Positions 28,663 through 60,224 of a stretch of DNA of 64,000 nucleotides are shown piece after piece. Numbering within the stretch: the stretch's first letter is position 1; every line of letters starts with the position of its first letter. Origin of the DNA: Candidatus Lloydbacteria bacterium RIFCSPHIGHO2_02_FULL_50_18 (GTDB lineage: Bacteria > Patescibacteriota > Minisyncoccia > Phycocordibacterales > UBA6899); contig MHLM01000004.1 in assembly GCA_001821395.1 (NCBI GenBank), positions 64,001-128,000 of the forward strand, written 5' to 3'. A program made the translations under genes and the position numbers. Below the pieces are notes generated by a model that did not search any database, was not told where the DNA came from, and saw only the letters and a list, made by a program, of their open reading frames with translations.

Positions 28663-29181
28663 TCACTTGGGAACTACGGCGAAACGCACCTGCTCATGCC
28701 ATCCGAGTACTCCCGCTCCGATGGGGTAGATCATCCGAATGCTGGTCTCTGCTTTGGTTGCCGTGCGCATGAGGATGACCGCAATGTGTCCGTTCTTGTT
28801 AAGCCAAGGAGAGCCGAGTGCGATGATCGGAGGACCACTCTTATTAAGCAATGTCGGATCTGCCGCGATCATTGCAAGTGTCTCATGGAGTGTTGCCGGA
28901 CGGTAACCCATTAGTGCGATCTTCTTCAACGCTTCGTCACCGACCACGTACTGGTCAATCGAAATGAGTTCGACCGCAACCACGATCTTCCCTTTTTCCA
29001 TCCTCGGGAAGTTCTCTTCCTTGACGGCCGGTCCGACATCATCAAACCTTGCGTTCGTGATCATCTGTCGAAGTGACTGGCTGTAGTCAACAGTGACCGT
29101 GTATCTTTCTGCGAATGCCGGGGATATCGGCAAGAAGCAGAGCAAAGATACGAATACGCTGGCAAGCATACGCTGGAACAT
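28663..29181 (-). CDS. Secreted hypothetical protein
   Basis: Signal peptide MFQRMLASVFVSLLCFLPISPAFA. Confidence 0.45.
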   Translation of the reverse strand: MFQRMLASVFVSLLCFLPISPAFAERYTVTVDYSQSLRQMITNARFDDVGPAVKEENFPRMEKGKIVVAVELISIDQYVVGDEALKKIALMGYRPATLHETLAMIAADPTLLNKSGPPIIALGSPWLNKNGHIAVILMRTATKAETSIRMIYPIGAGVLGWHEQVRFAVVPK

Positions 29182-29644
29182 AACAGATCTCCTTAATGGT
29201 GAACAACGTTGAACTCTGCCCCATTGTTTATCACCTCTCTATTCCCGTGTCAAACGTTATGGCAAAATAAGCCGTACGATGTCCGGATAAATGAATGACG
29301 CTTTACGAGTAAATTATTGGCGCGTACCATTGTCTCTATGTTATCATCATTTTTGTCGTGGGGGGGGGCTCGATGGCGACGCAAAGATCGCTCAGTGGAA
29401 AAAACAGGTGGAAGGATTTATGCCTATCATTTCCGGCGCACGCATGGAAGAGGATTATCTCAATTTTGCTTTTCTGCAAAAAATCAGCACTCCCGCATCG
29501 GGAAAAGCATCTGCATAGCGGTTTCGGTCGGTATGTACTCGGTCATTTTAGTTGCATAATGAGTGCGCGCAAGTGCCTTCTTGCTTGGAATTGGCCGAAT
29601 GGGGTGGTACAGTTAACCCGTAGTTAATTACATAATAAAAAGAT

Positions 29645-29980
29645 ATGGCAGCAAAAAAAGTAGCAGCAAAAAAGGCAGTCGCTAAAAAAGCAGTAGCAAA
29701 AAAGGCGGTCGCAAAGAAACCTGCAGCAAAAAAGGTCAATTCCGCATTTATGAAACCAATGACGATCAGCGCCGAGCTTGCTCTTGTCGTCGGAAAAGGT
29801 CCGATGCCTCGTTCAGAGGTCGTGAAGAAGCTCTGGGTTTATATCAAGAAGCATGATCTTCAGGATGCAAAAAATAAGCGCAATATCAACGGCGATGCGG
29901 CATTGGTTGCGGTATTCGGCGGAAAGAAGACCGTCAACATGTTTGAAATGACGAAGCTTGTGTCGAAACATCTTTCATAA
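29645..29980 (+). CDS. SWIB/MDM2-domain protein with an N-terminal Lys/Ala-rich histone-H1-like tail
   Basis: AAKKAVAKK repeats followed by ...ELALVVGKGPMPRSEVVKKLWVYIKKHDLQDAKNKRNINGD...MFEMTKLVSKHL. Confidence 0.75.
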   Translation: MAAKKVAAKKAVAKKAVAKKAVAKKPAAKKVNSAFMKPMTISAELALVVGKGPMPRSEVVKKLWVYIKKHDLQDAKNKRNINGDAALVAVFGGKKTVNMFEMTKLVSKHLS

Positions 29981-30002
29981 GACAAACTTAAGTATGAGCA
30001 AA

Positions 30003-30040
30003 AGCCCGCAATGTCTGCCTCTGCAGACAGGCGGGCTTTT
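30003..30040 (+). terminator. Compound hairpin terminator after the SWIB gene
   Basis: GCCCGC..GTCTGCctcTGCAGAC..GCGGGC followed by TTTTGTGTTT. Confidence 0.55.
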
Positions 30041-30080
30041 GTGTTTCTTGTGCGCAGTTCTGTTATAATTTGCGCATTCT

Positions 30081-30398
30081 ATGACTATATTTACTGAGCG
30101 CGTGATAAGGGCGGCACTTTCGATACCGAGGGGGAGGGTGACCACGTATGGCCGTATTGCCCGTGCTGCGGGAGGTGGCGGCATGTCGGCGCGTAGTGTG
30201 ACGGGGATACTCGGAAAAGCCTATGATGCGGGTGAGACACGAATACCTTTCCACCGTATTATTTACGCCGACGGAAAGGTCTGGGTGGATGATGCGCATC
30301 GGGCAAAACGCATGAAACTTTATAAAGAGGAGGGGGTCATGCTCGACAAGGGTGACCGAGTGAAAAATTTCGCCGACATTGTCTTTGATTTTAAATAA
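30081..30398 (+). CDS. Alkyltransferase-like protein (MGMT DNA-binding fold; the active-site Cys is replaced)
   Basis: VTTYGRIA...IPFHRII. PFHR replaces the catalytic PCHR. Confidence 0.65.
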   Translation: MTIFTERVIRAALSIPRGRVTTYGRIARAAGGGGMSARSVTGILGKAYDAGETRIPFHRIIYADGKVWVDDAHRAKRMKLYKEEGVMLDKGDRVKNFADIVFDFK

Positions 30399-30407
30399 CA
30401 GAAGCAG

Positions 30408-31112
30408 ATGCAAACAGCGTTACATATTGAACGTGCATTGAAGAAGGTGGGCACCGCAAAGAGGGCCGCTTCTTCTGCGAGGTTTTTTAAAACAGGAAAA
30501 GGAGAGTATGGTCAGGGTGACATATTTGTCGGGGTCACCGTACCCGAACAGCGCAAGCTCGCGAAGGAGTACGCAACGCTTCCGCAGGGTGAGATCGCCA
30601 AACTCCTGAAGCGTCGCATCCATGAATGCCGATTGACCGCACTCATCTTATTGATCGGACAGTACAAGAGTGGGGATGAGGCTGCGCGCACGAAGATCGC
30701 GAGGTTTTATCTCGCCCGCACGAAGTACGTCAACAGCTGGGATCTGGTCGATGTATCTGCGGGTGCAATTCTTGGTACGCACTTACTCACGCGTGATCGC
30801 AGGATCCTTTATCGTCTTGCGCGTTCAAAGAACATCTGGGAACGTCGGATCGCCATCATCGCAACACTCGCGTTCATCAAAGCGGGTGACGTTCATGACA
30901 CACTCCTGCTTGCTGAACTCTTACTCGCGGATACGCACGACCTCATGCACAAGGCGGTCGGCTGGATGCTCCGTGAGGTGGGCAAGCAGGCTCGTCCCGC
31001 GTTGGTCTGTTTCTTGAAAATCAATGCGGCGCATATGCCTCGCACCGCTTTGCGCTACGCAATCGAGCATTTCGGTGAAGCGGAGCGTAAGAAATTTTTA
31101 CGTGCAACATAA
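30408..31112 (+). CDS. DNA alkylation repair enzyme (AlkD/AlkC-like HEAT-repeat glycosylase family)
   Basis: Length and pattern typical of PF08713 (ARFFKTG...NSWDLVD...WMLRE). Confidence 0.7.
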   Translation: MQTALHIERALKKVGTAKRAASSARFFKTGKGEYGQGDIFVGVTVPEQRKLAKEYATLPQGEIAKLLKRRIHECRLTALILLIGQYKSGDEAARTKIARFYLARTKYVNSWDLVDVSAGAILGTHLLTRDRRILYRLARSKNIWERRIAIIATLAFIKAGDVHDTLLLAELLLADTHDLMHKAVGWMLREVGKQARPALVCFLKINAAHMPRTALRYAIEHFGEAERKKFLRAT

Positions 31113-31974: not shown

Positions 31975-32250
31975 ATGCAATATTCTGTCTATATCCTTCG
32001 CTGTGTCGACGATACGCTCTATACGGGGATAACAAATGATCTTCCCCGGCGCCTGCTCGACCATCAAAGTGGAAAGGGCGGAAAATACACTCGTGCGCAC
32101 CCCGGTCTCGCCATGGTCTATCATGAAATGGCGGGGAAAAGGGGTAGCGCGTTACGTCGTGAGGCGGCCATCAAGAAGATGACAAGACGAGAAAAGCTTC
32201 TCTTGATCGCTGCCTCAGTCGATGTTTCTTCAAAACACTTATTAACATAA
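31975..32250 (+). CDS. GIY-YIG nuclease family protein
   Basis: VYILRC..LYTGIT.DL.RRL..H motif. 91 aa. Confidence 0.8.
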   Translation: MQYSVYILRCVDDTLYTGITNDLPRRLLDHQSGKGGKYTRAHPGLAMVYHEMAGKRGSALRREAAIKKMTRREKLLLIAASVDVSSKHLLT

Positions 32251-59777: not shown

Positions 59778-60224
59778 ATGATCGAACTACGCAAAGAAAC
59801 GAATGCACAGTATAAGCTGAAAGTCGGCCGCTCAAAGACGGGCTTGGGTCTCTATGCATTGGAGCCGATCCCAAAGGGGAAAAAGATCATCGAATATGTC
59901 GGCAAGATCATGACCGATGAATCCGACGACGACAAGAACAGTTTATATATTTTCAATATCAATAAGAAAGTCGACATTGACGGAGCGCCCCGCTTTAATA
60001 TCGCACGTTATATCAACCATTCATGCCGACCAAATGCCGAAAGCGACACCTACAAGGATCATGTATGGATAAAGTCGAAGCGGAACATCATGCTCGGCGA
60101 AGAGATCACCTATGACTACGGCAAGGAGTACTGGAATGAATACATCAAGCCGAAGGGCTGCCGTTGTGAGAAGTGCACCGAAAAGAAGCTGAAACCCTTG
60201 TCCACCAAAGAAAAACGTCAGTAG
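59778..60224 (+). CDS. SET-domain protein with a post-SET Cys cluster
   Basis: NHSCRPN, EEITYDYG and a C-terminal CRCEKC. Confidence 0.75.
   Translation: MIELRKETNAQYKLKVGRSKTGLGLYALEPIPKGKKIIEYVGKIMTDESDDDKNSLYIFNINKKVDIDGAPRFNIARYINHSCRPNAESDTYKDHVWIKSKRNIMLGEEITYDYGKEYWNEYIKPKGCRCEKCTEKKLKPLSTKEKRQ

Follow-up and report, generated by a model that had tools for sequence, protein, structure and literature searches.

A lysine/alanine-tailed SWIB protein of a Lloydbacteria genome: a probable nucleoid-associated member of a widespread bacterial family

A small gene in the genome of Candidatus Lloydbacteria bacterium RIFCSPHIGHO2_02_FULL_50_18 joins a tail of lysine- and alanine-rich repeats to a SWIB/MDM2 domain. 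The gene lies in a 64,000-nucleotide stretch of DNA, here called the window, which also holds two genes for SET proteins, and a preliminary description had combined the three into a eukaryote-like toolkit for organising and modifying the nucleoid. The locus therefore raises the question of what kind of protein this is, whether its tail and its domain are related to eukaryotic or chlamydial chromatin proteins, and what it is likely to do in the cell. The features on which our answer rests are collected in Table 1.

Table 1. Features of the SWIB locus and of the two SET genes, in window coordinates.
Feature	Coordinates	Strand	Basis
SWIB protein CDS, 111 aa, ATG to TAA	29645..29980	+	ORF list and sequence
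Lys/Ala-rich tail, residues 1-31, predicted disordered	29645..29737	+	Composition, pLDDT
Tandem DNA repeat encoding the tail	29648..29735	+	Tandem Repeats Finder
SWIB/MDM2 globular core, residues 32-111	29738..29977	+	PF02201, AlphaFold2, Foldseek
Intrinsic-terminator hairpin	30000..30047	+	Terminator scan and RNA fold
SET protein, 148 aa, complete SET domain	59778..60224	+	SET 82.7 bits
SET protein, 101 aa	15685..15990	-	SET 36.8 bits, C-terminal part of model only

The reading frame proposed for the SWIB protein is a real gene, and its boundaries, from the ATG to the TAA, are exactly those given in the preliminary description. From the sequence we computed for the whole product a mass of 12.0 kDa, a pI of 10.5 and a net charge of +20. 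It is 100% identical to the hypothetical protein A2845_01635 of Candidatus Lloydbacteria bacterium RIFCSPHIGHO2_01_FULL, a groundwater Parcubacteria/Patescibacteria metagenome-assembled genome. The deposited Lloydbacteria copy is found on at least 11 contigs, and the locus recurs on one 176-kb contig and on several shorter contigs from other samples. An antisense frame at 29548..29739 (- strand), encoding FFA(T/A)A repeats, was rejected as a gene, being the mirror image of the tail repeat.

The upstream neighbour of the SWIB gene (28663..29181) lies on the opposite strand, 463 nt away, and the intervening gap (29182..29644, 463 nt) contains no convincing gene; a 75-aa frame at 29291..29518 that public annotations call there has no family match. 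An Rfam scan of the window returned two tRNAs only and no match in this gap. Nor was any sigma-70-like promoter found on the + strand between 29182 and 29644, by a sigma-70-like search that is uninformative for a Patescibacteria genome. On the other side, a terminator hairpin (AAAAGCCCGC ... GCGGGCTTTT, followed by the T-run GTGTTTC) starts 20 nt past the stop codon; its RNA fold reaches -35.7 kcal/mol (z = -5.4), and 0 of 200 shuffled sequences were as stable. The SWIB gene looks monocistronic, with a terminator of its own, and this terminator separates it from the pair of genes that lies downstream.

That pair consists of an MGMT-like gene (30081..30398) and an AlkD-like gene (30408..31112), followed in turn by genes for a SurA-N-like protein and a GIY-YIG protein. 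The first gene, on the + strand, encodes 105 aa with the MGMT DNA-binding domain (PF01035, 53 bits), in which P-F-H-R stands in place of the active-site PCHR. Because the acceptor cysteine is thus missing and the ogt score lies below its cut-off (29.3 versus 46.4), the product appears to be an alkyltransferase-like (ATL) protein without catalytic activity, the phenylalanine being unusual. The AlkD-like DNA-alkylation repair gene (PF08713, 194 bits), also on the + strand, begins ten nucleotides after it, and the two probably form a small alkylation-damage operon. We rejected a functional link between the SWIB gene and this pair on account of the strong terminator between them. Such a link is also not conserved, since among 170 related SWIB loci homologs of the MGMT-like protein occur in three and of the AlkD-like protein in one.

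Indeed, the gene neighbourhood of SWIB is mostly not conserved among relatives. Four of the 170 loci (L103, L111, L055 and L038) have a GIY-YIG gene directly before SWIB, on its strand and at a distance of 67-999 nt, which encodes a small protein homologous to that of 31975..32250 in the window; L103 keeps the order GIY-YIG, SWIB, ATL-like, echoing the gene content of the window. An unannotated frame of about 150-160 aa located 3' of SWIB in L007, L008 and L009 was rejected as a conserved partner, its products being 20-23% identical and poorly alignable.

The tail (MAAKKVAAKKAVAKKAVAKKAVAKKPAAKKV) is built of six (A/V/P)AKK(A/V) pentads and contains 12 lysines among its 31 residues and no Asp or Glu, with a charge of +12 and a pI of 11.0. 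The AKK/VAKK repeats of the preliminary description are thus present, over about 31 residues rather than 35, the core starting at N32. Since pLDDT stays below 50 for residues 1-24 of the AlphaFold2 model, the tail is predicted to be disordered. In the DNA it corresponds to a tandem array which Tandem Repeats Finder resolves into 5.7 copies of a 15-nt period or 2.8 copies of a 30-nt period (the latter with a score of 121 and 83% matches).

A repeat of this kind might be untranslated low-complexity DNA that annotation has attached to a gene whose real start lies downstream. The DNA before 29645 shows neither a clear Shine-Dalgarno sequence nor a promoter, and in-frame methionines exist at positions 36 and 39. 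However, a start at either of these would delete the conserved N32-x-A-F-M36-K-P38 motif, and in relatives belonging to several phyla the core is directly preceded, in frame, by an M-A-(A)-K-K tail. The tails of these relatives vary in length and repeat unit, so that what is conserved is the protein and not the DNA. Because the internal starts lose the motif and Lys-rich tails are conserved as protein across phyla, we consider a wrong start highly improbable.

How general the tail is can be judged from 167 related loci with an identifiable start. An N-terminal stub of at most 10 residues, typically MAKK- or MPKA-, precedes the core in 139 of them (83%), an extension of 11-19 residues in eight, and a tail of at least 20 residues in 20 (about 12%), these belonging to several lineages and the longest counting 115. 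Tail length in the family thus ranges from about 2 to about 115 residues. A short basic stub is almost universal among stand-alone bacterial SWIB proteins, and the long Lys/Ala/Pro-rich tails sit on both Patescibacteria-type and proteobacterial/Bacteroidota-type cores, with repeat units (AKKAV, PAKKPVAKKA, KKATKKKTA) that vary from one relative to another. With 83% of the related loci essentially without a tail, the tail cannot be the core function of the family. Among very close relatives of the window protein tail length is the main difference, which fits expansion and contraction of the repeat. From these comparisons the tail looks like an add-on of variable length, growing and shrinking by repeat slippage on an almost invariant core: a histone-tail-like Lys/Ala extension that appears to have been repeatedly gained or resized by way of a slippage-prone repeat.

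The preliminary description had called this tail histone-H1-like and Hc2-like. When scored against the relevant models it fell below every cut-off: 25.1 bits versus 40 for Pfam HC2 (PF07382), a low-complexity match only; 16.3 versus 135 for NCBIfam Hc2 (NF038052); 12.6 versus 80 for the Burkholderia H1-like model (NF038053); and 22.2 versus 100 for the Rv3852 family (NF050153). A Pfam scan with E values up to 1 returned only SWIB and HC2, and no linker-histone globular domain. With all scores sub-threshold, we rejected homology of the tail to H1, Hc1 or Hc2. Judged by these models, its resemblance to H1 and Hc2 is compositional, and the epithet holds for composition but not for descent.

The domain that follows the tail gave a very different result. 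The preliminary description had seen a clean SWIB domain and staked its reading on an HMM search, and Pfam SWIB (PF02201) indeed matches residues 37-110 over the full length of the model (positions 1-74 of 74) with a score of 97.8 bits, the cut-off being 25 (E 2.9e-28). The conserved part begins somewhat earlier than the HMM match, at N32. The core is itself basic, with a net charge of +8 over 80 aa and a pI of 10.1. An AlphaFold2 model built on 35 homologs has a pLDDT of about 90-95 across the core, and Foldseek, run with it against the PDB, returned SWIB and MDM2 domains only. The first was 1v31, with a TM score of 0.73 on the target and an rmsd of 1.4 A across 75 columns; BAF60 and MDM2 came next, and the probability was 1.00 throughout. 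The predicted structure thereby confirms the SWIB/MDM2 fold of the core. Among solved structures, yeast UAF30 comes closest by sequence, through its SWIB domain (E 9.6e-14).

Across 167 distinct homologs about half of the core positions are at least 95% conserved, and this degree of conservation is reached by the basic positions K37, R56, K61, K68, K78, R79, K94 and K104. Within the N-x-A-F-M-K-P motif that opens the core, N32, F35, M36 and P38 are conserved at 97-98%. When the window protein is compared with L011-L090, identities over the 80-aa core are 72-88% even between phyla, among them Patescibacteria, Proteobacteria, Bacteroidota, Gemmatimonadota and the PVC group (Verrucomicrobia, Chlamydiae). 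Such identity between phyla matches that of the most conserved housekeeping proteins and is unusually high for a small protein that does not look essential; it may reflect either extreme constraint or frequent horizontal transfer. For the SWIB/MDM2 genes of Patescibacteria, frequent horizontal transfer has been inferred (PMC12455944).

In bacteria, the preliminary description noted, Chlamydiae are the best-known source of SWIB domains. Is the family then a chlamydial one? Its distribution says otherwise. In a word-indexed search 7999 of 8000 scored candidates reached E <= 1e-3, so that the number of matches is at least 7999, the best 120 of which are 72-100% identical. When the core alone was searched against all of 1.84 billion cluster representatives, 4269 clusters passed E <= 1e-3, and 1564 of them also E <= 1e-10. 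With two narrow peptide patterns applied to the contigs of one genome per species, we confirmed a close relative, 70-88% identical to the window core, in at least 587 species-representative genomes from more than 10 phyla. According to the genome labels, these relatives occur in many Patescibacteria lineages, Omnitrophota, Bdellovibrionales, Elusimicrobia, Sphingobacteriales and Gemmatimonadaceae, and also in Burkholderiales, Verrucomicrobia, Parachlamydiales, Nitrospirales and Raymondbacteria.

The phylogeny proposed in the preliminary description was run as a rough neighbour-joining tree, of low resolution given a core of about 80 aa. In it the window protein falls into a Patescibacteria-type cluster, while the Parachlamydiales/Verrucomicrobia, the proteobacterial and the Sphingobacteriales/Gemmatimonadaceae sequences branch apart; yeast UAF30 is 40% identical over the core. 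A recent acquisition from a eukaryote or from Chlamydiae finds no support in this rough tree. Because of its spread and of the tree, we regard the SWIB family as bacterial and widespread; it is not peculiar to Chlamydiae, nor is it obviously a recent arrival from eukaryotes. The SWIB domain has been called rare in prokaryotes (PMC12445093), and a 2025 study has already listed the SWIB/MDM2 genes of Patescibacteria among horizontally transferred 'chromatin' genes and asked what their role might be (PMC12455944). Bacterial SWIB proteins are common in databases and almost unstudied outside Chlamydiae.

Six SWIB homologs come from IMG/VR contigs classed as viral (L091-L096). They are 56-63% identical to the window core and branch deeper in the neighbour-joining tree, and that of L091 bears a Lys/Pro/Ala-rich tail of 50 aa; carriage by phages or viruses could add to the horizontal spread of SWIB genes. 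Other proteins contain two or six tandem SWIB domains (P0004, 160 aa; P0121, 896 aa), and in P0223 (488 aa) and P0255 (403 aa) bacterial-type SWIB cores, 63-66% identical, form the C-terminus of Ser/Thr protein kinases. The fusion to kinases is of note because DNA binding by the plant protein SWIB-4 is reportedly switched off by phosphorylation.

The proposed toolkit had a second component, the two SET proteins, and both are recognisable in the window with the scores given in Table 1. The 148-aa protein has the SET domains of eukaryotic KMT2 and EHMT as its closest solved relatives (E about 1e-16) and is weakly similar to the Legionella effector LegAS4; the 101-aa protein may be truncated or divergent. 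Their genes lie 30 kb (148 aa) and 14 kb (101 aa) from the SWIB gene and are not co-transcribed with it, and at these distances the window gives no evidence of linkage.

The relatives are more informative. Our survey for SET neighbours covered the 170 related SWIB loci with 1.36 Mb of flanking DNA. Six of these loci contain a homolog of the 148-aa protein, and in five of the six it lies no more than 750 nt downstream of SWIB (128-713 nt), with 52-61% identity to the 148-aa protein. SET is convergent with SWIB in three Parcubacteria-type loci (L014, 6962-7369; L065, 1203-1583; L127, 6368-6757) and on the SWIB strand in two loci labelled Bdellovibrionales (L080, 6454-6810; L082, 4664-5077). A rough estimate for five of six SET genes lying so close is 3e-5 if placement in the flanks is uniform and the loci are independent, and the five loci represent only two or three independent arrangements. 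A SET-SWIB operon was rejected as a case of shown co-transcription, since in L082 the two genes share a strand but are separated by a terminator-like hairpin. All five SET-adjacent SWIB proteins are tail-less, with stubs of at most 6 aa, so the association with SET does not depend on a tail.

Gene adjacency thus lends modest support to a functional link between SWIB and SET, of the kind that co-occurrence had earlier suggested in the chlamydial literature (PMC6426960), and the sometimes direct adjacency of SET methyltransferase and SWIB genes is a point worth recording for the family. For the nucleoid-organising and modifying toolkit this adjacency, at 5 of 170 loci, counts modestly in favour, whereas the 14 and 30 kb that separate the genes in the window count against it. 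The eukaryote-like character of the machinery did not hold up: nothing points to a remodelling machine, and the protein is a stand-alone one of 12 kDa.

A chlamydial SET protein is said to methylate Hc1/Hc2. It is conceivable, if doubtful, that the SWIB tail, the conserved lysines of the core, or both are the physiological substrate or DNA-targeting partner of the minimal SET lysine methyltransferases encoded in the same genome. Equally doubtful is the further notion, part of the same reading, that SET and SWIB form a simple pair of 'writer plus basic chromatin protein' in which lysine methylation adjusts how compact the nucleoid is. In its favour are the two SET genes of the window and the adjacency of SET to SWIB in 5 of the 170 loci, in two arrangements. 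Were it true, Patescibacteria and some other bacteria would possess a counterpart of histone-tail methylation.

As to its function, we think that the SWIB protein is most likely a small basic nucleoid-associated protein acting on the cell's own DNA. This reading is the best one because of the net charge of +20, the conserved basic core and three DNA-related precedents, and the spread of the family over many phyla makes the protein a probable DNA-associated protein rather than a rarity. The tails of histone H1, chlamydial Hc2 and the lysine-repeat tails of mycobacterial proteins bind the DNA backbone non-specifically by charge. The disordered Lys/Ala tail would bind DNA in this manner, raising affinity and allowing charge neutralisation or bridging, and the SWIB core with its eight conserved basic positions would provide a second contact, either to DNA or to a conserved partner such as topoisomerase or RNA polymerase. 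The tail itself would be an optional extension of the core, which slippage of the 15-nt repeat adds, removes, lengthens or shortens. We also count in favour of a DNA role that SWIB cores of several lineages bear K/A/P-rich tails, and that the recurrent, directly adjacent neighbours of SWIB in relatives are DNA- or chromatin-related (SET in five loci, GIY-YIG in four).

The three precedents, which point to DNA, come from published work on related proteins. In the topoisomerases whose C-termini the tail and SWIB together match (see below), this module stands where other topoisomerases have DNA-binding C-terminal domains, and in CtTopA an unstructured region precedes the SWIB domain, deletion of which impairs function (PMC12445093). 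From Waddlia, heparin chromatography yielded Wcw_0377, which gave a ChIP-seq signal all along the genome, its DNA binding being possibly indirect according to the authors (PMC6426960); among stand-alone bacterial SWIB proteins, association with chromosomal DNA is reported for this one only. Plant SWIB-4, which has an H1-like motif beside its SWIB domain, binds DNA, compacts nucleoids and complements an Escherichia coli hns mutant, according to later accounts of the original work (Melonek 2012, via PMC4154389 and PMC4758235).

Counted against a DNA role must be that eukaryotic SWIB/MDM2 domains are mainly modules for protein-protein interaction; to our knowledge, direct DNA binding by a SWIB core has not been established. 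The near-total loss of the tail in 83% of related loci, the variable gene neighbourhood and the negative promoter search also weigh against it. The main rival to our reading is accordingly a core that serves mainly as a protein-protein adaptor, its helical cleft holding a topoisomerase, RNA polymerase, kinase or SET partner while the tail tethers the complex to DNA. The fold matches the SWIB domains of MDM2 and BAF60, which are protein-binding modules (PMC12445093), bacterial-type cores are fused to Ser/Thr kinases (P0223, P0255) and topoisomerases as a docking module would be, about half of the core positions hardly vary, as if held by a conserved macromolecular partner, and SET genes adjoin SWIB in 5 of the 170 loci. 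Yet the neighbourhoods are mostly variable, and a strongly basic core with conserved Lys and Arg fits contact with nucleic acid at least as well. We regard a mainly docking core as rather unlikely; a role on RNA or the ribosome, export, and a mis-annotated tail are less likely than that.

Alternatively, the protein might be associated with RNA or the ribosome and have a translation-related role instead of organising DNA. Ribosome-binding proteins are typically small and basic and carry Lys-rich disordered extensions, as does this one with its pI of 10.5. Many homologs show precomputed matches to PF26291 (SWIB_eIF2D, the SWIB domain of a translation factor), but these are weak and lie under a stronger SWIB match. 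Translation genes occur within a few kb of SWIB in two relatives (IF3/L35/L20 in L007; S30AE, def and fmt in L008), a linkage that is neither adjacent nor recurrent. Since the experiments on Waddlia and on plant SWIB-4 speak for DNA, we hold the ribosomal alternative to be improbable.

Patescibacteria are often episymbionts, and the protein might instead be exported to act as an effector on host DNA or chromatin. This would parallel Wcw_0377, which was detected in host nuclei (PMC6426960), and the same question was raised in 2025 for the SWIB genes of Patescibacteria (PMC12455944). However, the Lys/Ala repeats begin at residue 2 and leave no signal-peptide-like hydrophobic stretch, no secretion genes adjoin the SWIB gene, and the family is present in many free-living phyla, all of which makes an effector very unlikely. 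If instead the protein is a major nucleoid protein of ultra-small bacteria, as our preferred nucleoid-associated reading would allow, it would help explain how reduced genomes are packaged, and it would give a tractable test of whether a bacterial SET protein methylates the chromatin proteins of its own cell.

In conclusion, the window gene is a Lys/Ala-tailed variant within a known, widespread and poorly studied bacterial family and adds no new kind of element; what the preliminary description observed is confirmed, and its interpretation is supported in part. Its place is best seen by comparison with known systems. The C-terminal tails of H1, Hc1/Hc2 and the mycobacterial and Burkholderia Lys-repeat proteins share with it AKKA/PAKK-type repeats, a strongly cationic character and disorder, but linker histone H1 has a winged-helix globular domain that is absent from the window protein. 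Eukaryotic SWIB proteins (the UAF30/Tri1 type, BAF60/SMARCD, MDM2) share its fold but are bigger proteins that belong to complexes and combine several domains, such as DEK_C, coiled-coil or RING. Identity to the window core is only 16-25% for BAF60 and MDM2 (24-25% for the SWIB domains of BAF60), and a 111-aa stand-alone protein differs from the BAF60 (SMARCD) subunit of SWI/SNF remodellers, a large multidomain subunit of a complex with an Snf2 ATPase.

Closer likeness is found among bacterial proteins. Residues 3-111, tail and SWIB together, align with the last 105-109 positions, a basic linker and SWIB domain, of topoisomerase models: the C-terminus of TopoIII (PRK14724, 880-988 of 988) and that of chlamydial TopoI/SWI (PRK06319, 754-858 of 862; CT643). 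These fusions differ in carrying topoisomerase domains N-terminal to the linker and SWIB, of which the window protein has none, its scores being 89.5 and 73.5 bits against cut-offs of 1088 and 868. With the stand-alone bacterial SWIB proteins, such as Chlamydia CT460, Waddlia Wcw_0377 and many a 'SWIB/MDM2 domain-containing protein', it shares the plan of a single SWIB domain of about 80 aa that makes up nearly the whole protein, and its 111 aa and similar core place it within this type (about 85-120 aa); the core is 74% identical to its Parachlamydiales (L073) and Verrucomicrobia homologs. From CT460 and Wcw_0377 it differs by the 31-aa Lys/Ala repeat tail and by its Patescibacteria-type grouping. 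Plant plastid SWIB-4, going by its published description, has the same architecture and size (about 12 kDa and pI about 10, against 12.0 kDa and 10.5), with a basic H1-like segment beside the SWIB domain. It differs in being eukaryotic, nuclear-encoded and targeted to an organelle, and the repeat structure of its basic segment probably differs too. By this analogy, plant SWIB-4 would be the best functional analogue of the window protein.
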